The translations under genes were made by a program, and so were the position numbers. A DNA stretch of 64,000 nt from positions 922 to 64,921 of the forward strand of contig DATJZU010000026.1 in the NCBI GenBank assembly GCA_035498835.1. Reading direction: 5' to 3'. This stretch comes from Thermoanaerobaculia bacterium. GTDB lineage: Bacteria > Acidobacteriota > Thermoanaerobaculia > UBA5066 > Gp7-AA6. Shown one piece after another: positions 23,739-44,753 of this stretch. How positions within the stretch are numbered: position 1 is the stretch's first letter; each line of letters starts with the position of its first letter. Below the pieces are notes generated by a model, which saw only the letters and a program-made list of their open reading frames with translations, did no database searches and was not told the origin of the DNA.

Positions 23739-24830
23739 CTACGCCGCGAAGTCCTTCAACCGGACCGGAACCCGCCGCGCTCCCCAGATCCCGGGCTCGT
23801 CCTCGAAGACCCCGGCGCAGGGTGCGCCGCAAACCCCGCACCGCCCTTCCTCCAGGTTCCAGTCGGTCAGGACGTAGCCGTCCCGTCCGATGAGCAGGGC
23901 GCCGCAGGCGTGGCAGAGGGTGTCGCCTCCCTCCCGCTCCATGATGTTGCCCGTATAGGCGTAGCGCACTCCGTTCTTGAGCGCGATCCGGCGGGCGCGA
24001 AACAGCGTCTCCGAAGGAGTCCGCGGGACGTCGAGCATCTTCCAGTCCGGATGGAAGGCGGAAAAGTGCAACGGCACGTTCGGCCCGAGGTTTTCGACGA
24101 CCCACTGCGTCATCTCCTCGATTTCGCGGTCCGAGTCGTTGTGGCCGGGAATCACGAGGTTCGTCAGCTCGAGCCAGACCTTCGTCTCCTTCTTCAGATA
24201 GACGAGGGTCTCGAGCACCGGCTCGAGGTGCGCTCCCGTCACCTCCCAGTAGAACTTCTCCGTGAACGCCTTCAAGTCCACGTTGGCCGCGTCGATGTGC
24301 GCGTAGAAGTCGCGGCGCGGCTCGGCGCACATGTACCCCGCCGTCACCGCGACGGCCGCGATCCCTTTCTCGTGACAGGCGTCGGCCACATCCATGGCGT
24401 ACTCGTAGAAGATCGTCGGATCGTTGTACGTGAAGGCGACGCTGCGGCAGTCGAGCTCCCGGGCGGCGCGCGCGATCTTCTCCGGCGAGGCCTCGTCGGC
24501 AAGCTTCGCGATCTCCCGAGACTTGCTGATGTCCCAGTTCTGGCAGAACTTGCACGAGAGATTGCACCCCTCGGTCCCGAAGGAGAGAACCGGAGTGCCG
24601 GGCAGGAAATGGTTGAGCGGCTTCTTCTCGATGGGGTCGATACAGAAGCCGCTCGAGCGCCCGTACGTCGTCAGGACGATCTGCTCGCGCTCACACGCGC
24701 GAACGAAGCAGAGACCGCGCTGGCCCTCCCGCAGGGTGCAAAAGCGCGGACAGACGTCGCACTGCACACGGCCGTCTTCCAGCCGATGCCAGTACTTCGT
24801 GTCAACGACCGGTCCCTTCGATCCGGGCAT
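23739..24830 (-). CDS. amrS: AmmeMemoRadiSam system radical SAM enzyme
   Basis: N-terminal CDVCPRFC..CFVR, DPIEKKPLNHF, GCNLSCKFCQN (CxxxCxxC), FTYNDP, FSAFHPD, C-terminal CHAC/CGVC. Confidence 0.9.
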   Translation of the reverse strand: MPGSKGPVVDTKYWHRLEDGRVQCDVCPRFCTLREGQRGLCFVRACEREQIVLTTYGRSSGFCIDPIEKKPLNHFLPGTPVLSFGTEGCNLSCKFCQNWDISKSREIAKLADEASPEKIARAARELDCRSVAFTYNDPTIFYEYAMDVADACHEKGIAAVAVTAGYMCAEPRRDFYAHIDAANVDLKAFTEKFYWEVTGAHLEPVLETLVYLKKETKVWLELTNLVIPGHNDSDREIEEMTQWVVENLGPNVPLHFSAFHPDWKMLDVPRTPSETLFRARRIALKNGVRYAYTGNIMEREGGDTLCHACGALLIGRDGYVLTDWNLEEGRCGVCGAPCAGVFEDEPGIWGARRVPVRLKDFAA

Positions 24831-24965
24831 GTCGCAGCATGGCCTCCCCGCGCCGGGCATCGATAGATCCGTTTGCATCACGCCGCCGGAGCGTCTCCAT
24901 CGCTGATGCAATCGGATCTTGGCCGTACCGCCCGCGCCGCCGACACTCGGCCAGGAGGAGTTTCT

Positions 24966-25445
24966 ATGAAAGTCCGCAATGTGATGAAGAAGGACGTCAA
25001 GTTCTGTCCTCCGGAGGCGACGCTCGCAGACGTCGCGAAGCTCATGGCAAGGAACGACTGCGGGGTGGTTCCGATCATCGATGCGCAAAAGCGGGTCGTC
25101 GGCATGATCACCGATCGGGACGTCTGCCTCGAGGTCGGGACGAAGGATCGGCTTCCCTCTCGCGTCTCGGTGCGGGAGATCATGAAGCGCCGCGTCTACG
25201 GCTGCGGACCCGACGAGGAGATCCAGGCCGCGCTCGAGCAGATGCGCAACCGCAAAGTGCGGCGCCTGCCCGTGCTCGAGGAGGACGGCCGTCTCTGCGG
25301 GATCCTGTCGCTCGACGACATCGTGCTGCGGGTTGAGGAGGGGTTCGGGCCCGAGCGGCCCGAGCTTTCCGACATGGAGGTCGTCGAAACCTACAAGAGC
25401 ATCACGCGACGGCCGGCCAAACCCCAGAGGATCATCCAGGCATAA
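24966..25445 (+). CDS. CBS-domain protein
   Basis: Two CBS repeats (GMITDRD; VRRLPV...GILSLDD); strong GGAGG. Confidence 0.85.
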   Translation: MKVRNVMKKDVKFCPPEATLADVAKLMARNDCGVVPIIDAQKRVVGMITDRDVCLEVGTKDRLPSRVSVREIMKRRVYGCGPDEEIQAALEQMRNRKVRRLPVLEEDGRLCGILSLDDIVLRVEEGFGPERPELSDMEVVETYKSITRRPAKPQRIIQA

Positions 25446-32846: not shown

Positions 32847-33434
32847 GTGGTCATGGTTCGCAAACTGAGCCTTTTCGTTCTCGCGGGCGTCCTTGTCGCC
32901 GCCGCATCGGCTTCGGCGCAGGCGCCGCCGGAGGCCGGGTCCGTCGATCTCGGAGACTTCGCCCGGAAGGCCGCGATCGGCGGCATGACCGAAGTCGAAC
33001 TCGGTCGACTCGCCGTCGAAAGAGCGTCCAATGCCCGCGTCAAGGAGTTCGGGCAGCGGATGGTGAACGACCACACGCGCGCCGACACCGAGCTGCGCGT
33101 CGCCGCCCGGGAGCAGGGCATCCCCCTCCCCGCCGAGCTCGACGCCGAGCACAAGGCGGCCGTGAACAAGCTTTCACGGCTTTCGGGATCGGCCTTCGAC
33201 CAGGCGTACATGCGCGACATGGTCATGGACCACGAGGAGGACGTCGCGGAGTTCGCCCGCGCGGCGCAGAGCCCGGGCGATTCGCCGGTCAAGAGCTTCG
33301 CCGCGAAGAACTTGCCGACACTGCAGGATCACCTGAAGATGGCGCGTGACGTCGACGGCGAGCTCGGCCGGAGCAGCGGCGGCGGGGCCGAGGGGATGGT
33401 GTTCCTGCCGCGGTGGGCGTCGGCACGGGCCTGA
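32847..33434 (+). CDS. DUF4142-domain secreted protein
   Basis: FARKAAIGGMTEVELGRLA, VKEFGQRMVNDH, FDQAYMRDMVMDH, LPTLQDHLKMA. Confidence 0.9.
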   Translation: MVMVRKLSLFVLAGVLVAAASASAQAPPEAGSVDLGDFARKAAIGGMTEVELGRLAVERASNARVKEFGQRMVNDHTRADTELRVAAREQGIPLPAELDAEHKAAVNKLSRLSGSAFDQAYMRDMVMDHEEDVAEFARAAQSPGDSPVKSFAAKNLPTLQDHLKMARDVDGELGRSSGGGAEGMVFLPRWASARA

Positions 33435-33521: not shown

Positions 33522-34073
33522 ATGGACAAGCGTCGTTCGACCCGCCGAATCGCGATCCTGAGCGCCGTCATAGTTCTCGCACTCGCAGCGATCCCGTTCG
33601 GCCTCGCCCTGAGGGCCCAGGAGGCCCGAGAGCAGATCACCCTGTCGACGGGATTCCGATCAACGGAGGCGACACCGACTCCGACACCTTCCGCGCCGCA
33701 CCCGACACCGACAGTGCCAGCCGGACCGGTGACCCTGAAACAGATGCAGGGATCCTGGGTGGCGGCCCTGAGCGGAGTCACGGGATGCGGCGTGTCGACG
33801 CTTGCCATGGAATTCACGCTGGATGCCCAGGGCAAGGGCACGCAGCTGTCCTCGGCGGAGCACACGGCCGGTTGCGGCGAGCTCGACCACGCCGGCGACT
33901 ACGTCGACCTCCAGGTTCTCAACCCGGACGGGAGCGGTTTCATCGCCTTCGGCTGCGGCGTCGGCTGCGGGTTCGGGTTCACGTTCCAGCTTTCCCACAG
34001 CAAGGAGGTCTTCAACATGGCGCCGGAGCCCGTGCCCGGCAACTACCTGGCAGGCCTCGCCGTTCGGAGGTGA
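33522..34073 (+). CDS. Hypothetical exported protein with four Cys
   Basis: GGAGG RBS, signal/TM segment, Pro/Thr linker, compact beta-rich domain (GCG x2, FGCGVGCG). Confidence 0.6.
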   Translation: MDKRRSTRRIAILSAVIVLALAAIPFGLALRAQEAREQITLSTGFRSTEATPTPTPSAPHPTPTVPAGPVTLKQMQGSWVAALSGVTGCGVSTLAMEFTLDAQGKGTQLSSAEHTAGCGELDHAGDYVDLQVLNPDGSGFIAFGCGVGCGFGFTFQLSHSKEVFNMAPEPVPGNYLAGLAVRR

Positions 34074-34081
34074 GGCCCGAA

Positions 34082-34205
34082 CGCGGCGCAGGGCCCGGGC
34101 GATTCGCCGGTCAAGAGCTTCGGCTTTAAGACGCCGACGCACCAGGGCCACCTGAAGACGGCGCGCGACGTCGACGGCGAACTCGGCCGGAGCAGCGCCG
34201 ACGGC
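34082..34205 (+). pseudogene. Degenerate duplicate of the 3' end of the DUF4142 gene (33260-33385)
   Basis: AAQGPGDSPVKSFGFK-TPTHQGHLKTARDVDGELGRSS versus AAQSPGDSPVKSFAAKNLPTLQDHLKMARDVDGELGRSS; no start codon of its own. Confidence 0.8.
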
Positions 34206-34231: not shown

Positions 34232-34960
34232 CTACTTCAGGTAGACGCTCAAGATCAGACCGAAGCCGCTGACGTTCGGCACGGCGTGGTTGTAGTCGCG
34301 CTGGAAGTAAACCTCCGGCACGAACCTCTCCCATGCCTGAACGTCGAGACCTGCCGACGCCCGGGTCTTGACCCACGTTCCGGCCTCGAAATCGTAGAAG
34401 AACTCCCCGTTAGCATATGGGATGAGCTTGGTCTTCCCGAGATCGATGCCGCGCTCGAGCCGAACCCGGTTTCGATAGCGCGCATCGAACTTGCCATTCG
34501 TGAAGTTCAGATCGAAGCGATTCCGGTCGCCGAAGAGGACCTTCCAGGGCAGGAGCAGGCGAAAGGTCCCCTCGACGTCGATCCCGTTTGAAGCAGGCAA
34601 TTGCCCGCGCGAGGCGGTGTAAGCGTAGCCAACGCGAAACTGAAGCTGGCGGCGGCGGGCGTCGTTTGCCGGTCCGTAGAGGTCGAGTTTCGTGAGCGGC
34701 GACGTGAAGTAGTCCAGGTACACTCCAATCGTCCCGTTCTCGTAGGAGTTCGACTGGCCCTCGCGCGTCTGGCTGACCGGGACAAAGAGACGCAGATCGT
34801 CGTTGAATTTTACGTACGTATCGACTTCAGGCCAGAACTGAGTGTCTGCGGTCTGCGACTTCGCCGGCGACGCCAGCGCCAGCGCTGCGAGCGTGAACAG
34901 GACGCCCAATCGTTCGCAGGTGCCGGCTTTGCCTTCGCGAGACCCAGACCGACCGCCCAA
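34232..34960 (-). CDS. DUF2490-like outer-membrane beta-barrel protein
   Basis: Signal peptide, QFWPE.D, alternating aromatic strands, RYRNRVRLE, PYANGEFFYD, C-terminal YLK; start uncertain. Confidence 0.65.
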   Translation of the reverse strand: MGGRSGSREGKAGTCERLGVLFTLAALALASPAKSQTADTQFWPEVDTYVKFNDDLRLFVPVSQTREGQSNSYENGTIGVYLDYFTSPLTKLDLYGPANDARRRQLQFRVGYAYTASRGQLPASNGIDVEGTFRLLLPWKVLFGDRNRFDLNFTNGKFDARYRNRVRLERGIDLGKTKLIPYANGEFFYDFEAGTWVKTRASAGLDVQAWERFVPEVYFQRDYNHAVPNVSGFGLILSVYLK

Positions 34961-34973
34961 GACGCCGCCGTGC

Positions 34974-35897
34974 CTAGATCGGCACGGCGAACTGTACGTA
35001 CAGGCCCCGGCCCTGCGTCGAGAACTTCCCTCCGAACTGCCAGAAGTAGCGAATTGTCAGCGCGCCTTGCAGGGTCGTGAACTCCGGGCCCAGTGCGTAG
35101 ATCTGTGTCTTGTTCGCGGCGATGAATCCGGGCACGTCGGCGCCGTGAGTCTCGGTGACCTGCCATTGTGCGTATCCCGCGACACCTGCCCATCCCTTGA
35201 AAAGCTGCCCCGATCCGTAGTTCGCCCCGACGCCGTACATCAGCGTGATCGGATTGCCGGTGGTCCAGTCGGTGCCCTGCTTCTTGCTGTTGATGTCGTA
35301 GAAGAGCGACGCCGAGGCGTGAAAGTTCTTCTTCTCGTCGAAGAACACCGTCGAAAGCACCGACACCTCGTTGCACCACATGCCGAGGCCCGTGTTGTTC
35401 GACGCTCCGGGCGTGTAGCGTCCGGTGGGCGGGTAGAAGGCGTATTGGAACATGACGTCGGCCTGTGAAAAGTGCCAACCAATGTTGACCGGCACGATCC
35501 AGAGCTGGGAGAGGCCGAAGCTGGTCGAGTTGCTCACATCCAGGCGCGGAAAGTCCGTCGTTACGTTGGCAAACGGAACGGCGAGGACCGCCCCGTAGTT
35601 CCCGCCGAGGATCTTGATGTTCGAGACCCACGACACGAGGGGCCCGAAGTAGTACTGGTTGAAACTCGCGTCCCCCGAGGGGACCTTGTTTCCGTTCGGG
35701 CCCCGGAGCTCATCGGCCCAGGAGATCCCGCCGAGCAGCCCGGCATAGAGACCTGGCGGCGCCTGCGTGCCCGCCATGAGGCCGTACTCTCCTTTGAGAA
35801 TGAGCTGCTGGGCTTGCGCGCTCCGGGCGGCCTGGCAGGTCACCAGCAATGCTGCGAGAACGGGAAGAACCCGTCTCGTCGTTGACCGTCGATTCAT
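34974..35897 (-). CDS. SphA/MetA-pathway-type outer-membrane channel ('transporter')
   Basis: Signal peptide; AGTQAPPG.Y, ILGGNYG..LAVP, P.NIGWH, PTGRY...NTGLG motifs. Confidence 0.7.
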   Translation of the reverse strand: MNRRSTTRRVLPVLAALLVTCQAARSAQAQQLILKGEYGLMAGTQAPPGLYAGLLGGISWADELRGPNGNKVPSGDASFNQYYFGPLVSWVSNIKILGGNYGAVLAVPFANVTTDFPRLDVSNSTSFGLSQLWIVPVNIGWHFSQADVMFQYAFYPPTGRYTPGASNNTGLGMWCNEVSVLSTVFFDEKKNFHASASLFYDINSKKQGTDWTTGNPITLMYGVGANYGSGQLFKGWAGVAGYAQWQVTETHGADVPGFIAANKTQIYALGPEFTTLQGALTIRYFWQFGGKFSTQGRGLYVQFAVPI

Positions 35898-35929
35898 CTC
35901 GCGCCCTCCGTATCCGAACCGATCAGTCT

Positions 35930-37441
35930 TCAGTGTTGGGTGAAGTTCGTCAGGTTCCCGGCGGGCGGGTTCGGATACTTCTTGACCGACGCCTCGTATT
36001 CTTGGATCGCCTTGAAGACAGGTTCGCCCGCCCACAGGTAGTTGGGAAGTTGGAGATCCTCGTGCGGGTCGACCTCGATGTTGTAGATCTTCGGGTAGTA
36101 CATCGGGGCCGCGCTGCCAAACATCCCACCGAGCATCTGCTGGCCTGTGCCCGTCAGGCCCATGTCCTTGAAGTAGATTCGCCACTGCTTCCAGCGCGCC
36201 GCCACGATGTCCGGGCCGATGAAGGTGAGCAGCGTTTCGCGGTTTCCCATCGCGCTCTTACCCGTGAGCACGTCGGTCTGGTCCACGCCGTCGATGGCGC
36301 GGTCCGTAGGCAGCTTGGCGCCGATGATCGCCGCGAAGGTCGGCAGGAAATCCATCTCCGAGAACATCGCGTAGGACGTGGTGTTCGGCATCACGTGCCC
36401 GGGCCAGCGGACGAAGGCGAAGGTGCGGATCGAGCCCTCGGTCGCGTCGCCGAGCGAGCCGCGGAACGGCCCCGGGCTGCCCATGTCGGGCAATCCCAGG
36501 CCCGAGGCATCCCACGTCATGAAGTACTGGCCCGTCGGTCCGTTGTCCGACGCGAAGACAACGACGGTCTTGTCTTCGAGATTCAGCTCCTTGAGGGCGT
36601 CGAGCACTTGCCCAACGTGAAAGTCGCCTTCCATGATCTTGTCGCCGTACTGCCCGACGCGGGACTTGCCAGCGAATTCTTTGGATGGCAGGCTCGGCGC
36701 GTGCCCCATCGAGAACGGCAGGTACACGAAAAACGGCTTGCCCGCGGCCTGCTGCTGCTTGATGAACGCGAGGGCGTGGTCGGTGAGTTCGTTGTCGATC
36801 TCGGCGCGAACGGCGAGCGTGAAGGGCTTGACCCTCTGCAGGGGCCCGCCCACCTTCTGCTGCACGATCCAGGCACCCCTCTCGATCAGGACCTTCTCGG
36901 GGACGTCTCCGGCGCTGTGCGTTTGCACGATCTGCGGGATGTCCGCTGCGGTGTCCCACGAACTGTCCGGCGGGATGCCGTAGAAGTCATTGAAACCGTG
37001 CGCCGTCGGCACGCTCTGCGGGTCGCTGCCGAGATGCCACTTGCCGAACATTGCCGTCGCGTAGCCCGCGTCCTTGAACAACTGGCCCATCGTGTAGGCC
37101 CTGGCCGAGAGCGTATTGGGTGAGCCCGGCAGACCCAGGAGCGACAGTCCGTTGCGGATCGAATACTGGCCCGTCATGAGGGCCGTGCGCGACGGGGTGC
37201 AGCCCGGCTCGACGAGATACTGTGTCAGGCGAATCCCCTCGCGGGCGAGCCGGTCGGCGTTCGGTGTCGGATAGCCTCGCAGCTCGCCTCCCCCGTAGGG
37301 TCCCAAATCGCCGTAGCCGACGTTGTCGGCCAGGATGAAAACGACGTTCGGCCTCTTCGCCTGTTGCGCCGGCGCCGGCACCGCAAGCCCGACGGCCAGC
37401 GAAATAACAGCAACGATTCGAGGCAGTGTTCCTGATTTCAT
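35930..37441 (-). CDS. Exported Cys-type (aryl)sulfatase
   Basis: Signal peptide, PNVVFILADNVGYGD, CTPSR (CxPxR), GKWHLG, SDNG. Confidence 0.9.
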   Translation of the reverse strand: MKSGTLPRIVAVISLAVGLAVPAPAQQAKRPNVVFILADNVGYGDLGPYGGGELRGYPTPNADRLAREGIRLTQYLVEPGCTPSRTALMTGQYSIRNGLSLLGLPGSPNTLSARAYTMGQLFKDAGYATAMFGKWHLGSDPQSVPTAHGFNDFYGIPPDSSWDTAADIPQIVQTHSAGDVPEKVLIERGAWIVQQKVGGPLQRVKPFTLAVRAEIDNELTDHALAFIKQQQAAGKPFFVYLPFSMGHAPSLPSKEFAGKSRVGQYGDKIMEGDFHVGQVLDALKELNLEDKTVVVFASDNGPTGQYFMTWDASGLGLPDMGSPGPFRGSLGDATEGSIRTFAFVRWPGHVMPNTTSYAMFSEMDFLPTFAAIIGAKLPTDRAIDGVDQTDVLTGKSAMGNRETLLTFIGPDIVAARWKQWRIYFKDMGLTGTGQQMLGGMFGSAAPMYYPKIYNIEVDPHEDLQLPNYLWAGEPVFKAIQEYEASVKKYPNPPAGNLTNFTQH

Positions 37442-37923
37442 CCTCTCTCCTTCCTTCGGCAAGCACGACGTCGGCGAGCCACCGCCGATCATTTAACGTC
37501 GCAGCACCGGCGATCGCGGTCTTGAAAATCCCTCAGCGAGCGACATCGCGAGCCTTCCGAAACATATCTCGACCGGCTCAACTCCCGTGACCGGAATGCA
37601 GCGCAAACGGGTGAACGGCGCAGCGTAGATAAATCCGGGATAAATGTCGGCTCAACCACGCGCCCCTGCCTGCCGGCCCATATGTACCCTCGGCCTCGAA
37701 GGACGCCATGCGTACGCCGACGACGTCCGCTCCCATAAGCGTGTCGAACGAGCCGTACGCCCCTGCTCGACTCCTTGAAGAACGAGCAGGCCCTCCTCGC
37801 GGAGGAGCGAGATCGTCGGCGGCAGCAGCCCTTGAGCCGGTGACGCATTCACACGTCGAGTCAGGCCTCAAGCTTCGGCTCAGAGGCCGAGCGGAACGAG
37901 CGCGATGCCGAGTCTCGCGCGCA

Positions 37924-38811
37924 TCAGAACGTCACAATCAGAAAGAGCCGGGGTCCGTCGTACCGGTACGAAAAGTCGATGAACGAGTTCGTCTCCTCCT
38001 TCTTGAGAGCGACCTTGGTATAGCCGTACGCCGCACCGATCCCGAAGTTGTGCGTCGCGTACCAATCGAGGTGCGCGTCCGCCTCGAAGACCGATCCGAC
38101 GTACGGGTGCACCGGGGCGAAGATGCCCAGCACACGAATCCCGCCGGAGAGTCCATCGGCCAGGCGGCCGTCGAAATTGAGGCCGAGAAGGGGCACGGGC
38201 GTCGACAGCTTGGCGCTCTTGGTTACCGAGTTTCCGACGACCGGCCCTCCGGGCCCGATGACCCCTGCGGCGGCGCTCAGCTCCGCCTCGAGAATCGGGT
38301 ACGCGACGCCGAGCGACAGCCCGAACTGCACGTTCTCGTTCTTGACGAAGCCGTAGCTGTAGTCGATGTAGGGAAGGTTCGACTTCGATGTCGCCGATAC
38401 GGAAGCGCCTGCCGTGTAGGTGCTGTCGCCGAAAGTGACATCCCTCGAGAGGGTCTGCGTCCGCCCGCGGGAGAACCCGACGTAGCCGAAGTCGATGAAG
38501 CTACGGCCCGCGAAGTTCCATGAGCCCCAGCCGTTGAATCCCGCGGTTGACTGAGGCATCCCGAGGACGTTTTCGAGGCTGACACCGCCGCCGATGGGTC
38601 CCCCTTGAGTGATGTTCTCCTGAAAGGTGACGCTGGTGTTGAACCAGGCGTACATGGCCCCGAGCCGCAGCCGGAAGGTGTCGGGCACATCGCCGGGAAA
38701 CTGAGCCTGCGCCGGCATGGCGGCCAGGAGCAACCCCGACGCAATCAACAGGGGAATCAACCTGCGAGCAACCGCGGACCGACGCGTCGGGACCCCGCAA
38801 ACACACTGCAT
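37924..38811 (-). CDS. Outer-membrane beta-barrel protein of unknown function
   Basis: Signal peptide ending AQA; amphipathic strands; terminal Phe (FLIVTF). Confidence 0.7.
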   Translation of the reverse strand: MQCVCGVPTRRSAVARRLIPLLIASGLLLAAMPAQAQFPGDVPDTFRLRLGAMYAWFNTSVTFQENITQGGPIGGGVSLENVLGMPQSTAGFNGWGSWNFAGRSFIDFGYVGFSRGRTQTLSRDVTFGDSTYTAGASVSATSKSNLPYIDYSYGFVKNENVQFGLSLGVAYPILEAELSAAAGVIGPGGPVVGNSVTKSAKLSTPVPLLGLNFDGRLADGLSGGIRVLGIFAPVHPYVGSVFEADAHLDWYATHNFGIGAAYGYTKVALKKEETNSFIDFSYRYDGPRLFLIVTF

Positions 38812-38837
38812 GGGGGATGTCTCCTTTTTCCTCGAAC

Positions 38838-39866
38838 TCAAGTAGCCGCCGTCGCGGCGCCCGAAATGCAGGAAGCAACCATCTTCTCGAGTTGACTCGC
38901 GTTCACCCCACCGGCGGCGCCGATCGCGACAATCCGGCTGCGCGGCGAGAGGCGGCCCCACTCCTCGTGCAACGAGATGTCCACTCGCCTCCCGACCACC
39001 TGCAGCACCGCCTTCCGTCGCGGGGCGTCGGCGGAGTAGATGAATCCCTTGGCCCGGTAGACCGTCCCGGGCAGGCGACGCATCGCCTCCTGCAACGCTT
39101 CGAGCACGAGAGGCTGGTCCGTCTCGTAGCTCCATGTGCTGAAGACGCTCGAGTGATCGAGGCCCGGACGAACGTCGCGGCAGCCAGGGTCGGCGCAGCT
39201 CGTCTCGATGTGCTTCGAGTCGATGCTTGTTCGAGCCGGGTCGAAGCGCCCCACACCCAGGAGGACCTCGTAGGGGACGTCGCAGTAGTCCGTCTCGAAG
39301 ATCCGAAGGCGGTTGAAATGCTCGTCCAGCCAGGCTCGGGCCTTCCCGACTTTCTCGGGACCGGCAAGGCTCACCTTGTTCAGGATCACCATGTCGGAAA
39401 ACCCCACCTGGTGGAGCTTGAGATCCATCAGGGGCGGATATTCGGGGTGAGCGAAGACCTGGTCTGCGTCCAGCACGCAGGTGACGCTGTCCAGACGGAT
39501 TCGATCCCGAAGATTGGGATCGTTGAAAGTCACGAAGATGCCGGCAGGATCCGCCACGCCGCTGGCTTCGAGCAGGATGTATTCCACCTTCTCCGGACGT
39601 TCGAGTAGGGCGGCGACCGACTCGACGAGGTCGTCGCGAATCTGGCAGCAGACGCAGCCGTTGGCGAGGCTGATCATGTTGTCGTCCACCCCGACGACAA
39701 GCTCGGCGTCGATGTTGATCGAGCCGAAGTCGTTGACGAGGACCCCCACGCGCAGGCCGTGATTCCCGGTCAGGATGCGATTGAGCAGCGTCGTCTTGCC
39801 CGCCCCGAGAAAGCCGGTCAGGACCGTGATGGGAACGGCCGTGCCGTTGTCATCTATGAGTTCCAC
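38838..39866 (-). CDS. COG0523/CobW-family GTPase metallochaperone
   Basis: TGFLGAGKTT, VNDFG, NGCVCC (CxCC), EASG, NK.S and a CobW_C domain (YRAKG). Confidence 0.9.
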   Translation of the reverse strand: MELIDDNGTAVPITVLTGFLGAGKTTLLNRILTGNHGLRVGVLVNDFGSINIDAELVVGVDDNMISLANGCVCCQIRDDLVESVAALLERPEKVEYILLEASGVADPAGIFVTFNDPNLRDRIRLDSVTCVLDADQVFAHPEYPPLMDLKLHQVGFSDMVILNKVSLAGPEKVGKARAWLDEHFNRLRIFETDYCDVPYEVLLGVGRFDPARTSIDSKHIETSCADPGCRDVRPGLDHSSVFSTWSYETDQPLVLEALQEAMRRLPGTVYRAKGFIYSADAPRRKAVLQVVGRRVDISLHEEWGRLSPRSRIVAIGAAGGVNASQLEKMVASCISGAATAAT

Positions 39867-39870
39867 GTTG

Positions 39871-41310
39871 CTACTTCATGAACTGCTTCAGATCGATCCC
39901 CATCACCTTCGCCATTTCGCGAAGATCGACCAGCTGCGGGTTTGGGAGCTTGGTGAGGGGCTGACGGTAGACGTCCGGCGGGTAGTACTTGTGCGGATCG
40001 ATCTCGAGATCGCGCGTCCTCTGCTCCTGCTGCTGCTCGCGCGGCAGCCGGGGCTGTGGGACGACGCCCTGGCCTGTTGCGAGGGGGAGCGGGTCGCCGA
40101 ACAGCAACGTGGGTGGCGGGAGCGGCTGGCCCGAGAAGCCGGGAAGGACAGCATCGCGCTGCCAGATCGCGTCCTTCGTGACATTGACGGTCACCACGTC
40201 CGGCGCCCCGTAGAGGAAGAGCCCCTTCCAGTGGGCGCGGATGTCCGCGCTCTGCTCGTTGAGCGTGTCGTCGTCGAACGCGAGGTGCGTGGCCATGCCG
40301 ACGCGCGGGCCGACCTGGTTGATGAGGTAGCCCGTGGCGTATGCCACCGTGTGGTGAATGTCCACGGTGTAGTTGTAGAGGAATTCGGGGAGCCCGTACT
40401 TGAGCTGGTTGAGGCGGGACAGATCGGGCTGGAGCTCCGTGACGAAGACGTCGACGCCTTTCGCATACTTCGCCGTCAGCTCGTCGGGCCGGCCGTCGCC
40501 GGTCCAGACGAACGAAAGGCCGTTCCAGTCGAGACGGTAGGCCGAGGCGCCGTCCTTGGTGTGCGAACGGCGCCAGTGCCGGATCGTGACGCCGTTCTTG
40601 TCGTAGCAGATGCCGTTCTCGTCCTTCCAGTCGAACTCGTTGACCTCGACCTCGTAGCCATCGCCGATCGGGCAGCTGTCGAAGGCTTCGAGGTGCCACT
40701 TGAGCATCTGCTTCATGCCGGCGACCATCGCCTTCGTGCCGAGGTCCGGCGTGCGGCCCGAGGGCCCGGTGACGCGCAGCGGCATCTTCCAGCGCCCCGC
40801 CCACGCCGAGAAGGGGAGCAGGTAGGACAGGTCGTGGTAGTGGTCCACGTGAAGGTGCGTGATGAAGATGTCGTTGATGCTCGGGACGGGGACGCCCATG
40901 GCGAGAATGTTCTTGACGCAGCCCGGTCCGAAGTCGAAGAAGAAGCGGTCGCCGTTGCCGAGCTCGACCATGATGCACGTGCCGGCCTGGTCGCGCCGGG
41001 GTGGGAACGGGCAGCTGCCGACGAACGAGATGCGCATCTCGTCGGGCCCGAGGGTCTCGCTGCCGGGGAAATAGTTCATCCGGCTCCGGACCGACGGCGT
41101 CGGCTGGTAGTAGGGCGGGAACTGCAGGCCGGTGCTCGGCCCCCCGCCATACGGGTTCGTCGGCATGGTCGAGCCGGTCTGCCCGAGGGCCACGGTCGGG
41201 TCGGCGGCGGCAAGCCCCACCGCCGCGGCGCCGGCAATGGCGGTCTTGAGCATGGAGCGTCGATCCAGATCGCTTCGGGCCGGTGCCTTCGTGTCGTCGT
41301 CGGTCGCCAT
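39871..41310 (-). CDS. Tat-exported metallo-beta-lactamase-fold hydrolase (RNase Z/AtsA-like)
   Basis: Twin-arginine signal DRRSMLK; THLHVDH (HxHxDH), SHTKDG, WTGDG, DIHHT, ATHL metal ligands. Confidence 0.85.
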   Translation of the reverse strand: MATDDDTKAPARSDLDRRSMLKTAIAGAAAVGLAAADPTVALGQTGSTMPTNPYGGGPSTGLQFPPYYQPTPSVRSRMNYFPGSETLGPDEMRISFVGSCPFPPRRDQAGTCIMVELGNGDRFFFDFGPGCVKNILAMGVPVPSINDIFITHLHVDHYHDLSYLLPFSAWAGRWKMPLRVTGPSGRTPDLGTKAMVAGMKQMLKWHLEAFDSCPIGDGYEVEVNEFDWKDENGICYDKNGVTIRHWRRSHTKDGASAYRLDWNGLSFVWTGDGRPDELTAKYAKGVDVFVTELQPDLSRLNQLKYGLPEFLYNYTVDIHHTVAYATGYLINQVGPRVGMATHLAFDDDTLNEQSADIRAHWKGLFLYGAPDVVTVNVTKDAIWQRDAVLPGFSGQPLPPPTLLFGDPLPLATGQGVVPQPRLPREQQQEQRTRDLEIDPHKYYPPDVYRQPLTKLPNPQLVDLREMAKVMGIDLKQFMK

Positions 41311-41452: not shown

Positions 41453-41466
41453 TAGACTTTGGTCTA
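41453..41466. promoter_or_regulatory. Candidate FixJ/NarL-type operator 1
   Basis: TAGAC-TTTG-GTCTA inverted repeat upstream of the hydrolase operon. Confidence 0.5.
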
Positions 41467-41515: not shown

Positions 41516-41893
41516 TCACGATCTCCTCTCGAGCGCCGCGCCGATCGCGTCGAGGAGCGCGGCGTTCGCGAACGGCTTTCGGAGCAACCTCACGCCGCCC
41601 GCCTCCGAAGCGGCGGGAGTGAGCTCGAGGTACTGGTTCGCCGTGATGAAGACGACGGGAATGTCTTCGCCCGCCGCACGCATCCGCGTCTGCACTTCGA
41701 GGCCGGAAATCCCGGAGAGCTGAATGTCGAGGATCACGCAGGCGGGGCGACGGGTCTCGAGCGACGCGAGAAATTCCTCACCGGAACGAAAGGAGCCAAT
41801 GTCGTAGTCGTTGAGACGCAGGAGGCGACCGAGCGCGACACGGACCGGAGCTTCGTCGTCCACGACCGCGACATAGGGGCGCTCGATTGTCAC
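41516..41893 (-). CDS. Stand-alone response-regulator receiver (FixJ-associated type)
   Basis: VAVVDDE, VILDIQL, VFITA, LRKPF. Confidence 0.9.
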   Translation of the reverse strand: MTIERPYVAVVDDEAPVRVALGRLLRLNDYDIGSFRSGEEFLASLETRRPACVILDIQLSGISGLEVQTRMRAAGEDIPVVFITANQYLELTPAASEAGGVRLLRKPFANAALLDAIGAALERRS

Positions 41894-41932
41894 CGTGTCG
41901 GGAGACTACAGGCGAGAATTGAAATCCGAACT

Positions 41933-41946
41933 TAGACCTTGGTGTA
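41933..41946. promoter_or_regulatory. Candidate FixJ/NarL-type operator 2
   Basis: TAGAC-CTTG-GTGTA upstream of the receiver gene; matches operator 1 at 12 of 14 positions. Confidence 0.45.
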
Positions 41947-42055
41947 GTGGCTAGCGACTCCGATTCATTCGAGTCGTGGAGTTCCACGATGCGCCACGCG
42001 ATCCGGCGGCTCGCGATGCACATCCGCCAGGCGAATCGAGGCCCCTTCTACGGGT

Positions 42056-42685
42056 TCAGCGGGGCTCCGATCCAACGCCGAGCTTCGCGGCGATGTGCAT
42101 CAGCTCGGCGGCCGTTCGCGCATGCATTCGCTCCATGAGCCGGGCCCGGTGGAACTTGACCGTCTGTTCGACGATGCGGAGGTCGCCGGCGATCTGCTTG
42201 TTGAGCCGGCCGGAAGCCACCGCCGCGAACACCTGGCGCTCACGCTCGGTGAGACTCTCGAATCTTCGCTTGAGCTCCCCGAGAGCATCACCCTCCAGAC
42301 GCGCCGCGGCGTCCCGGTCGACGGCCGCTTGCACGGCTCGGAGGAGCACCGCGGCCTTCACGGGCTTCGTCAGGAAGTCGACGGCGCCCCCCTGCATTGC
42401 CCGGACGGTCATCGGAATGTCGCCATACGCGGTCAGAAATACGATCGGCGGCGTCCTTTCGGTCTGTGCGAGACGACGTTGCAGCTCGAGACCGTCGAGG
42501 CCCGGCAGTGACACGTCAAGCACGAGGCAGCTCGGCGACGGAAAGTTCGGGAGCGCGAGCACGGCCTCTGCGGACTCGAAGGTCTCGACGCTCCACCCTT
42601 TCGCGCGCAACAAGCGCGACAGGCTCTTGCGCACGGCGGGATCGTCGTCGACCAGGTAGACCGTCGGCGGGAGTGAAGCCGGCAT
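42056..42685 (-). CDS. FixJ/LuxR-family DNA-binding response regulator
   Basis: VYLVDDD, LDVSLP, LTAYGD, FLTKP, LTERERQV...GRLNKQIA..L...TVKFHR; ATGA coupling to kinase. Confidence 0.92.
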   Translation of the reverse strand: MPASLPPTVYLVDDDPAVRKSLSRLLRAKGWSVETFESAEAVLALPNFPSPSCLVLDVSLPGLDGLELQRRLAQTERTPPIVFLTAYGDIPMTVRAMQGGAVDFLTKPVKAAVLLRAVQAAVDRDAAARLEGDALGELKRRFESLTERERQVFAAVASGRLNKQIAGDLRIVEQTVKFHRARLMERMHARTAAELMHIAAKLGVGSEPR

Positions 42686-44592
42686 CAGGCGTCCGGGCTC
42701 AATCCCAGGGTCATGCAGAAGGCCGCTCCTCCGTCGGCGCCGTTGGTGACCTCCAATGTTCCCCCGTGTTTGGCGGCGATCGACCGGCAAAGAGCGAGCC
42801 CCATCCCGATGCCCCCGGGCTTGGTGGTCCAGAACGGCTCGAAGACGCTCTTGAGATTCTCGGCCGCGATACCCGGTCCGCCATCGGCGACAGTCAATCG
42901 AACCCCGGCGCCCGCCGTCGTGGTTCGGACGGCGACGCGGCGTTTTTCGATGGGCGTCTCGTCCATGGCCTCGGCGGCGTTCAGGATCAAGTTCAGAAGA
43001 ACCTGCTGGAGCTGGACGTGGTCGCCCCGGATCCGTGGCATCGGTTTCTCGAGTTCCAGCGCCACAGTGACATGCCGGGACTGGAGCTCCGTTTGCGTGA
43101 GATCGAGCGTCTCGGAAACGAGCTCGTTGAGATCGATCTCCCGGAGCTCGAGGTCACTGCGCTTGAAGAGCGCCGCCAGGCGATGAATCACGTCCGCGGC
43201 GCGGTGATCCTCGCTCACGATGTCGGCGCAAATCTCCCGGAGCTCCGCGAGATCGACGGGATTCCGGCCGAGGATGTCCTGTGCCACCTCGGCGTTGCTC
43301 AGGATCGAGGTGAGCGGCTGGCCGAGTTGGTGCGTGATGGAGGCGGAAAGTTGACCCAGCAAAGACACTCGGGTCATGTGATGCAGCGCCGCGCGATCCT
43401 GCTCGGCCTGGAGGTCGGCCCTCGCGCGCGCGGCGGCGGTCCGGAGACGCATTCGGCGCTCGGCGAGGAGCGACGCAATGAGCGCGGCCTGAATGAGGAC
43501 CACGACGATGGCTGTAATGGCCAGACCTCGATGGGCCTGCCACGCCGTCGGCTCGCGGAAGTGCACGACGGCGTCGGCGGGGATGTCGCTCCCGGCAATG
43601 CCCCACTTCTGGGCCTGCCGCCAGTCGATGTGAAGCTGCGTCGACATGATCTCCGGCAGCTGGAGCGAGGACGGTCCGGCGCCCGCGAGCAGCGCGTTCA
43701 CGATCTGCCCGGCCTGCCGGCCCTCGGCCTCGAAGGAGACCATCCGTCCCCCGACGACGCCCGCTCCGATAAACGTGTCGAAGGGGCCGTAGACGGGCGC
43801 CCTGGCCGCAGCGGCCATGATCGCGGCGGATTCGCGCGGCGAGTACACCCGGCCGGCCCCGTCCTTGAAGTAACCGGGCGTGAAGACCACGGCTTCTCGA
43901 CCGAGCTCCCTCAGACGGTCGAGAACCGCCCCGGTCGTTTGGCCGGATAGAAAATCGATCGTCGCGCGACGCTCGAACCGTGGGGCCTCGGCTCGCAGCA
44001 GCGCCTCCCACTCGCGATCCCGTAAGCCCGTCCCCGTCACGAGGACGAGCCGGCGGGCCTTCGGATGCCAGCGCAAGGCCTGCTCGATCGTGCCGGAAAA
44101 GTCGTATTCGACCGGGACTCCGATGACATCGGAGGGCAGAGGCGGAATCGTCTTCAGGAACGACCGCGAGACGTCCGTGTACACGACGGGGGTTTGCGGA
44201 AATAACTTCTTGCGATGTCGCAGGAGAAAGGTGAGCGCTTCCTCTGCCACCACCACGATGGCACCCGGCGGCCGAGAGGAGTATTTCTCGGCCAGGTAGC
44301 GGGCGGCCGCGCCTTCGTAGGGCTCACCGATGAACCACGGCTCATCGAGACTCTCGGTTTGCAGCTCCGTCTGGGGACTCGCGGAATGAGCGATTGCATC
44401 GCGTAATCCTCGATCGATCTCGATGTCCGCGGGCAGCGATCGACCGTACGAATGCAGGACAAGAACACTCGGGGTCTCTCCCCTCGCGGCCGCCGGAGCG
44501 AGAAGAAGCAAGAAACCGGCCAGCAGTGGCGTCGCGAGGGTTTTCGCGTCCCGATGCCAAACGCAGAGCCGAAGACGCAAGTCTGAGCGCAC
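42685..44592 (-). CDS. FixL-like sensor histidine kinase with periplasmic solute-binding-like domain
   Basis: Signal peptide, large periplasmic domain, one TM, H-box SITHQLGQPL, NLILNA, DGGPG, GIGMGL. Confidence 0.88.
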   Translation of the reverse strand: MRSDLRLRLCVWHRDAKTLATPLLAGFLLLLAPAAARGETPSVLVLHSYGRSLPADIEIDRGLRDAIAHSASPQTELQTESLDEPWFIGEPYEGAAARYLAEKYSSRPPGAIVVVAEEALTFLLRHRKKLFPQTPVVYTDVSRSFLKTIPPLPSDVIGVPVEYDFSGTIEQALRWHPKARRLVLVTGTGLRDREWEALLRAEAPRFERRATIDFLSGQTTGAVLDRLRELGREAVVFTPGYFKDGAGRVYSPRESAAIMAAAARAPVYGPFDTFIGAGVVGGRMVSFEAEGRQAGQIVNALLAGAGPSSLQLPEIMSTQLHIDWRQAQKWGIAGSDIPADAVVHFREPTAWQAHRGLAITAIVVVLIQAALIASLLAERRMRLRTAAARARADLQAEQDRAALHHMTRVSLLGQLSASITHQLGQPLTSILSNAEVAQDILGRNPVDLAELREICADIVSEDHRAADVIHRLAALFKRSDLELREIDLNELVSETLDLTQTELQSRHVTVALELEKPMPRIRGDHVQLQQVLLNLILNAAEAMDETPIEKRRVAVRTTTAGAGVRLTVADGGPGIAAENLKSVFEPFWTTKPGGIGMGLALCRSIAAKHGGTLEVTNGADGGAAFCMTLGLSPDA

Positions 44593-44655: not shown

Positions 44656-44753
44656 TGGCGGAAGCGTGTGGGAGTCGAACCCACCCGTCCCGGCAGAACC
44701 GCGACGCCGACGGATTTGAAGTCCGCGAGGGTCACCGGACCCCGTGCGCTTCC
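44656..44753 (-). tRNA. selC: tRNA-Sec (anticodon UCA)
   Basis: GGAAGCGC...GGACTTCAAATCC...GGTTCGACTCCC...GCTTCCGCCA. 8-nt acceptor arm (C.A at position 8), 5-bp T stem, 6-bp D stem with 4-nt loop, long variable arm, encoded CCA. Confidence 0.95.

Follow-up and report, generated by a model that had tools for sequence, protein, structure and literature searches.

PNGM-1 (PDB 6J4N), a metagenomic hydrolase of the metallo-beta-lactamase (MBL) fold, has weak, promiscuous beta-lactamase and RNase (tRNase Z) activity; its activity on beta-lactams is 3–4 orders of magnitude under that of true B3 enzymes, and closer homologues from two other organisms are uncharacterised (PMC6882493). Here we describe a relative of this enzyme, paired with a COG0523 GTPase and standing among genes for a two-component system (TCS), a sulfatase and outer-membrane proteins, in DNA of a Thermoanaerobaculia bacterium (Acidobacteriota; assembly GCA_035498835.1, contig DATJZU010000026.1, positions 922–64,921 of the forward strand; the whole stretch of 64,000 nt is referred to as the window). 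A scan for the hydrolase, taking one genome per species, found 383 relatives, and the counts given below refer to the best 80 loci. These loci reveal the gene content of the neighbourhood and an enrichment of sulfatase and TCS genes near the hydrolase–GTPase pair. We propose, with about even confidence, that the window holds a modular, TCS-headed cluster that most likely takes up an organic sulfate ester, which may be aromatic or hydrophobic, and hydrolyses it.

The window MBL shares with PNGM-1 both its fold and its seven-residue binuclear metal site. PNGM-1, however, has no known genomic context, and the window enzyme additionally has a putative twin-arginine translocation (Tat) signal and, at its C-terminus, a conserved stretch of ~90 further amino acids. 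A second named relative is GntH (NF041257), the MBL of the cyanobacterial guanitoxin cluster. The window MBL scores above the cut-off of this model, but no gnt genes lie nearby: its neighbours are the TCS, the COG0523 GTPase, barrels and the sulfatase, and no biosynthetic partner recurs in the 80 loci. Because a review that summarises the nine-step in vitro guanitoxin pathway names GntA–G, I and J and leaves GntH unmentioned (PMC10673588), the GntH name implies no demonstrated function; literature searches found no paper pairing 'GntH' with guanitoxin.

On the side of the GTPase, the COG0523 metal-binding motif is defined by N(G/S)CxCC between G2 and G3, and bacterial metalation clients are barely known beyond those of CobW and the nitrile hydratase activator Nha3, according to a 2024 review (PMC11672702). 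The pairs Nha3/Fe-nitrile hydratase, CobW/CobNST and ZNG1/METAP1 likewise bring together a CxCC G3E GTPase and a presumed client metalloenzyme (PMC11672702), but in none of them is the client an MBL-fold hydrolase; literature searches found no such pairing, and no paper joining COG0523 with the MBL fold, RNase Z or a sulfatase. The ElaC-derived MBL arylsulfatases, SulfAtlas family S4 (ElaC/AtsA-type, PDB 8GYG), are linked to sulfate-ester use (PMC5066984) and are built on the same RNase Z-like MBL scaffold, with detectable similarity to the window enzyme that is no stronger than that of RNase Z; they are ~300–330 amino acids long, with no GTPase partner reported (PMC5066984). Clusters of S1 sulfatases and sulfate-ester regulons likewise contain an exported CxPxR sulfatase, outer-membrane uptake proteins and a dedicated regulator, to which the window cluster adds the MBL hydrolase and its metallochaperone. 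Bacterial sulfate-ester regulons are under CysB/SftR-type control, in contrast to the binding-protein-type sensor kinase found here. No characterised system of this architecture turned up in literature searches, in agreement with the initial annotation of this DNA.

Results

A PNGM-1-like hydrolase is coupled to a COG0523 GTPase

The open reading frame (ORF) list and profile searches confirmed six co-oriented genes between 34232 and 41310, all on the minus strand, with the motifs and gaps that had been described for them. The first two of these genes form the pair:

39871–41310, minus strand: RNase Z-like, binuclear MBL-fold hydrolase with a putative Tat signal (NCBIfam NF041257; PNGM-1/'GntH' family)
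38838–39866, minus strand: COG0523 (G3E P-loop) GTPase, probable metallochaperone (Pfam cobW 162 bits, CobW_C 59 bits)

The hydrolase stop codon and the GTPase start are 4 bp apart. Searching the related loci by tblastn and ORF clustering revealed a COG0523 gene downstream of and co-oriented with the MBL gene in 78 of 80; its start falls 3–297 nt past the tblastn-matched end of the hydrolase in 77 loci and 3.5 kb away in one, and in the two loci lacking it the contig ends at the hydrolase. Synteny of the two genes is thus obligate in the clade examined. Plasmid-borne MBL homologues at greater distance, from Ruegeria (50% identity) and strain M382 (37%), have no GTPase, and coupling to COG0523 therefore defines a clade. 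Such constant pairing makes it very probable that the hydrolase is matured by the GTPase. Cultured carriers of the pair include Pseudomonas jessenii DSM 17150, Rhizobium and Sinorhizobium (on plasmids), Rhodococcus marinonascens and Methanosarcina sp. Mfa9. One apparent MBL–COG0523 fusion protein (P0113, 706 amino acids) was rejected as an assembly or frameshift artefact, since it contains out-of-frame stretches.

The GTPase itself has the features of its family: at least 95% of 79 partners share the motifs GFLGAGKTT, NGCVCC (residues 69–74), LEASG and LNK, a C-terminal CobW_C domain (PF07683, 58.8 bits) spans residues 242–333, and YjiA (1nij) is matched with an expect value (E) of 3.5e-30. 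It scores below the NCBIfam equivalog cut-offs for CobW (174 bits vs 332) and ZigA (150 vs 600). Its linker carries a Cys-x4-Cys motif (C225/C230) in at least 70% of the 79 partners and H237 in at least 95%; these three residues may form a second metal site.

The ATG of the hydrolase at 41310 agrees with the start of its homologues. Its sequence matches Pfam Lactamase_B and Lactamase_B_2 and carries HLHVDH at residues 159–164, and 12 diverse homologues all retain its metal ligands H159, H161, D163, H164, H257, D279, H326/H327 and H349. The match to NF041257 (539 bits vs a cut-off of 333) covers profile positions 1–373 of 374, so that the NCBI pipeline would name the protein GntH, as it already names homologues. 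Among solved structures the best match is PNGM-1 (6j4n; E 1.6e-58 with a single sequence, 1.9e-71 with a profile, over ~320 residues), to which the enzyme is ~45% identical as read off the alignment, with all metal ligands aligned. Against the RNase Z/BN equivalog models the best score is 61 bits vs a cut-off of 252, from an alignment confined to the N-terminal half; arylsulfatase 8gyg is matched at E 5e-8 (single sequence) or 7.5e-13 (profile), and its 35–51 bits compare with 28–49 bits for RNase Z.

The hosts of the best 80 of the 383 relatives, drawn from more than 10 phyla plus one archaeon, include Acidobacteriota, Pseudomonadota, Actinomycetota, Planctomycetota, Verrucomicrobiota, Chloroflexota, Nitrospirota, Bacteroidota, Myxococcota and Methanosarcina. 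Amino-acid identity to the window MBL is 82–90% in loci of several bacterial phyla, 72–73% in Methanosarcina and Chloroflexota and 61% in Pseudomonas jessenii. Because synonymous sites are saturated (identity at four-fold degenerate sites is only 0.3–0.65) and the GC content of the gene mostly follows that of its host locus, this distribution points to old transfers combined with unusually strong purifying selection; that very strong purifying selection acts on the hydrolase is plain from these comparisons. A library clustered at 50% identity contains only 189 clusters that match the MBL at E 1e-30 or better.

Two other kinds of neighbour accompany the pair. In 20 loci (L001, L003–L009, L011, L012 and others), many of them from Acidobacteriota, a conserved AraC-family regulator (HTH_18) ~0.6 kb upstream of the MBL gene replaces the TCS. 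On the Rhizobium indicum plasmid pPR13E03 (3823–11597, locus L081) the pair follows genes for DUF2092, a peptidyl-prolyl isomerase, a HupE/UreJ metal permease and DUF3604, a neighbourhood that may hint at the metal used; a HupE/UreJ gene beside the pair was seen on the Rhizobium plasmid only. A link to Ni/Co uptake was dropped as evidence for the metal, the ABC ATPase cluster found in 7 loci being a generic family at variable distance.

The hydrolase is probably exported in some hosts and cytoplasmic in others

The N-terminus of the window MBL (DRRSMLKTAIAGAAAVGLAAA...ALG/Q) contains DRRSMLK followed by a hydrophobic stretch, and the Pfam TAT_signal model matches it at E 5e-4 (20.3 bits, under the cut-off of 22.7). 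Such a signal would set the window copy apart from tRNase Z-type enzymes, which are cytoplasmic. About 40 orthologues carry an RRxxLK twin-arginine signal, and ~30, among them those of Methanosarcina, Chloroflexota and many Acidobacteriota, begin a few residues before the conserved NPYGG and have no signal. Since the signal-less orthologues all retain the GTPase, the chaperone appears to be needed wherever the enzyme works and is not tied to Tat export. The initial annotation had proposed that the chaperone metallates the hydrolase before export; the coupling of the two genes supports metallation by the GTPase, whereas the absence of a signal from about half of the orthologues argues against a device specific to export. 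In the window organism, metal loading ahead of Tat export would nonetheless be the natural reading.

A sulfatase and a MetA-type channel are frequent neighbours of the pair

Farther downstream in the window lie genes for a second hydrolase and a predicted pore:

35930–37441, minus strand: family S1 (formylglycine-type) sulfatase (PF00884 170 bits, CTPSR, Sec-type signal peptide)
34974–35897, minus strand: MetA-pathway-type outer-membrane channel (PF13557 73 bits)

The PF00884 match (169.6 bits) and the CTPSR in the translation give the sulfatase the C-x-P-x-R signature of family S1, and its best solved relatives are arylsulfatase 7aj0 (E 2e-63), then steryl-sulfatase and arylsulfatase A; the channel scores 73.2 bits against a gathering cut-off of 22 for PF13557. 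Across the related loci, the density of sulfatase ORFs per 100 kb is 11.8 within 0.5 kb of the pair, 5.6 at 0.5–2 kb and 0.6–2.5 beyond. Within 2 kb of the pair, sulfatase genes thus reach 5–10 times their density farther out; nearly all are co-oriented with it, and two or more orthologous groups are represented. Orthologues of the window sulfatase (64–87% identity) adjoin the pair in twelve loci (L014, L022, L025, L028, L034, L049, L091, L093, L096, L103, L109 and L112); in the first six of these the identity is 64–84%, a MetA-type channel is usually present as well, and the gene order varies. Counting the window, 14 of 81 loci contain a relative of the channel (13 of 80 without it), usually next to a sulfatase.

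A reciprocal scan of metagenome contigs, starting from the sulfatase, returned 80 loci, of which 8 carry the pair and 11 the TCS. When only the 16 loci flanked by 4 kb or more on each side are counted, 9 contain the TCS and 3 the pair. In other phyla, genes for the TCS, sulfatase, MetA channel, MBL and COG0523 are again all found together, though in a different order, and the three modules (the pair, the sulfatase with the channel, and the TCS) are found singly and in every combination, all three together in ~8 independent contigs. Together, these data indicate that the sulfatase and the MetA-type channel often accompany the pair but are optional, and that the sulfatases are functionally linked to it.

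Upstream of the sulfatase, at 37590–37625 (minus strand), lies a direct repeat, ATTTATC-CCGG-ATTTATC, AT-rich for this genome, which may be a promoter or a regulator site.

A two-component system and a palindromic box precede the hydrolase

Directly upstream of the pair, on the same strand, a kinase and two response regulators (41516–44592) had been overlooked in the initial annotation, and two palindromic boxes accompany them:

42685–44592, minus strand: sensor histidine kinase (Pfam HisKA and HATPase_c; periplasmic sensor domain at about residues 30–345; transmembrane segment)
42056–42685, minus strand: FixJ/NarL (LuxR)-type response regulator (Pfam Response_reg and GerE)
41516–41893, minus strand: single-domain response regulator, receiver only (Response_reg 85 bits)
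41933–41946, unstranded: palindromic box TACACCAAGGTCTA (coding strand), candidate operator, 40 nt upstream of the small response-regulator gene
41453–41466, unstranded: perfect palindrome TAGACCAAAGTCTA, candidate operator, 143 nt upstream of the MBL ATG

In the sequence, the ATG of the LuxR-type regulator shares 1 nt with the stop codon of the kinase gene, and the two genes make up a TCS of the NarL/FixJ class; the regulator scores 186 bits against the NCBIfam model for FixJ and 153 bits against that for TtrR, both under the cut-offs. The same three-gene set of kinase, LuxR-type regulator and receiver accompanies the pair in L002, L014, L015, L024, L025, L049 and L075. Homologues of the kinase sensor have a LuxR-type regulator and sulfatases alongside in two of three loci examined, also where there is no MBL gene. 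An AlphaFold2 model of the sensor (predicted local distance difference test score, pLDDT, 87) best matches, by Foldseek, the PF04392-type protein CD0873 (6hnj, 'ligand-bound'; template-modelling score, TM, 0.76–0.80) and 3lft, an L-Trp complex. The modelled sensor would thus have a PF04392-type solute-binding fold, a lead to a small, perhaps aromatic, ligand.

The TACACCAAGGTCTA box is a one-mismatch copy of TAGACCAAAGTCTA, and the window holds three matches to a box of this type where 0.2 would be expected. In L015 and L049 a related box precedes the small regulator gene; in L024 one stands 95 nt past the regulator's upstream end, and the same TAGACCAAAGTCTA box occurs again 262 nt upstream of the MBL ORF. 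Counted over all loci, there are 6 boxes per 114 kb in TCS-bearing loci (two of them the window's own, which defined the motif) vs 9 per 1327 kb elsewhere. From its position and distribution, TAGACCAAAGTCTA is a probable candidate for the operator of the LuxR-type regulator, placed ahead of the hydrolase operon. Promoter and terminator scans gave no more matches than shuffled sequence.

Two barrels are local additions, and a kinase relic lies in the gap

The remaining features of the cluster are two barrel genes and a gene relic:

37924–38814, minus strand: 'barrel3', outer-membrane beta-barrel of an unnamed family (AlphaFold2 model)
37687–37757, minus strand: relic of a histidine-kinase sensor in the 482-bp gap (similarity to 43721–43791)
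34232–34960, minus strand: DUF2490-family putative outer-membrane protein (PF10677 31.9 bits)

Barrel3 begins 23 bp after the GTPase gene, and 482 bp separate it from the sulfatase. It has no Pfam or NCBIfam match; its AlphaFold2 model (24 homologues, pLDDT 81) consists of a signal helix and a barrel of 12–13 strands and matches generic barrels only (Pla/OmpT and FadL, TM ~0.5). It has 156 homologues, and the three examined are all near sulfatase genes. In L084 and L085, barrel3 homologues lie in three-sulfatase clusters with a HAD hydrolase and a phosphate-selective Porin_O_P, each of which looks like a separate locus for scavenging anions or esters. The DUF2490 match is marginal (31.9 bits vs a cut-off of 29.8). 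Within the 80 related loci, each of the two proteins has a single weak, non-adjacent relative (for DUF2490, in L027), and both are local additions.

Within the gap, positions 37687–37757 are 86% identical over 71 nt to 43721–43791 in the kinase gene (E 4e-20, direct repeat) and encode 20 of 29 amino acids identical to kinase residues 263–291, in the sensor domain. Judging from this similarity, the relic is what is left of a second kinase gene, and it marks the place where a rearrangement joined the halves of the cluster. Rfam detected no RNA element in the 482-bp gap.

The whole block from 34 to 45 kb has a GC content of 0.62–0.67, vs 0.68–0.72 outside, and is bounded by a tRNA-SeC gene (44656–44753, minus strand; Rfam 67.9 bits and ARAGORN) 63 nt upstream of the kinase start. 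This block may have been acquired; a search of it for signs of a genomic island found no integrase and no att repeat of the tRNA end, and the flanking genes are housekeeping genes. At the other edge of the block, the 3' end of a DUF4142 gene (32847–33434) is duplicated, with copies at 33260–33385 and 34082–34204 that are 86–90% identical and ~820 bp apart; between them lies a small ORF for a secreted protein without a family match (33522–34073).

The initial annotation had treated the six genes as one system with a single architecture. A check of how the neighbourhood recurs upheld the MBL–COG0523 core, and the sulfatase, channel and TCS recur in permuted order; a fixed six-gene unit, by contrast, is contradicted by the barrel3 and DUF2490 genes, which do not recur, by the kinase relic at the joint and by the many pair loci without a sulfatase.

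Discussion

The three modules suggest a division of labour. The GTPase would very probably insert the catalytic metal or metals into the binuclear site of the MBL hydrolase in the cytoplasm, and the loaded, folded enzyme would then, in the window organism, be exported by Tat. A Sec-exported formylglycine-type sulfatase and a MetA-type outer-membrane channel would make up the second module. In the third, the kinase with its binding-protein sensor, the LuxR-type regulator and the receiver would probably switch the genes on via TAGACCAAAGTCTA. At a guess, the MBL hydrolase might cleave a sulfo- or phospho-(di)ester beyond the reach of the S1 sulfatase.

Several observations weigh against uptake and hydrolysis of a sulfate ester by such a cluster. 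A sulfatase is missing from about 75% of pair loci, where the pair stands with AraC regulators, esterases, HupE/DUF3604 or PpoB2, and the pair must therefore be able to function without one. Purely periplasmic scavenging also sits badly with a cytoplasmic location in half of the orthologues. Among solved structures, those nearest to the MBL enzyme belong to phosphodiesterases (RNase Z, ElaC) and to PNGM-1 rather than to sulfatases, and PNGM-1 was crystallised with zinc. Within the window, no operator box was found upstream of the sulfatase; the 482-bp gap with its kinase relic suggests two operons joined by rearrangement; and the ~39 ORFs scanned include neither a formylglycine-generating enzyme (FGE) nor an anaerobic sulfatase-maturating enzyme (anSME), a radical SAM gene at 23739–25088 giving no SPASM-domain match at E 1e-4.

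Some of these observations would be expected if the pair were a self-contained mobile module, with a function of its own unrelated to sulfate esters, that landed by chance beside a sulfatase operon near the tRNA-SeC gene. The heterogeneous contexts of the pair, most of them without a sulfatase, fit such an origin, as do the relic, read as a rearrangement scar, the lower GC of the block that abuts the tRNA gene, and a barrel3 and a DUF2490 protein that do not travel with the pair. We nevertheless consider chance juxtaposition improbable, roughly a one-in-several prospect, because it leaves unexplained the excess of co-oriented sulfatase genes close to the pair and the operator-like box of the TCS ahead of the MBL gene; moreover, the same sulfatase orthologue, channel and TCS occur with the pair in differing orders in several phyla, for which chance or a single transfer would be inadequate. 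Regulated organosulfate scavenging with an accessory, chaperone-dependent esterase ranks first in our assessment, chance juxtaposition next, then phosphate scavenging and last beta-lactam resistance.

Phosphate scavenging would make the MBL enzyme a periplasmic phosphodiesterase with the chemistry of ElaC/RNase Z and the PF00884 enzyme a promiscuous phospho(no)ester hydrolase, both feeding phosphate uptake. It draws on the phosphate-selective Porin_O_P and HAD phosphatase genes that adjoin barrel3 homologues, and on a weak NCBIfam match to PehA, a phosphoric/sulfuric ester hydrolase. That match, however, reaches only 50 bits vs a cut-off of 900, and the PF00884 protein, which carries CTPSR, is over its full length closest to genuine arylsulfatases and steryl-sulfatases (E 2e-63 to 1e-58); with no PhoB/PhoR or Pst genes in the window, and a kinase and regulator that are not of PhoR/PhoB type, we regard this account as unlikely, a little more so than juxtaposition. 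Least credible, and in our view very hard to sustain, is a periplasmic PNGM-1-like beta-lactamase (subclass B3-like) supplied with zinc by the GTPase under scarcity. PNGM-1 is indeed the closest characterised and solved relative, the window copy has a putative export signal, and many COG0523 proteins are tied to zinc limitation (PMC11672702). Yet the identity to PNGM-1 is only ~45%, homologues at 37–50% identity lack the GTPase, half of the clade is cytoplasmic, the associated regulators are TCS or AraC proteins with no Zur-regulon genes nearby, and the strong constraint on the enzyme and its presence in Methanosarcina are unlike a resistance gene.

A broader suggestion, which we offer tentatively and rate as possible but doubtful, concerns the COG0523-coupled 'GntH'/PNGM-1-like clade as a whole. 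It could be a new family of maturation-dependent metalloenzymes whose active site needs a dedicated G3E GTPase, as those of nitrile hydratase and urease do, and which may use a metal other than zinc; its conservation might then stem from a specific ester that is widespread in soil, and the hydrolase would be the first bacterial hydrolase client of COG0523, Tat-exported after loading.

The MBL–COG0523 pair offers an obvious, testable client for metalation by a COG0523 protein. Its natural exported and non-exported versions, which both keep the chaperone, lend themselves directly to experiments on the place and manner of metal selection. The finding would also correct the misleading labels 'guanitoxin biosynthesis GntH' and 'ancestral beta-lactamase', which are spreading in databases for a family that is common among soil and peat bacteria, and it points to an unrecognised enzyme in the turnover of organic sulfur (or phosphorus).

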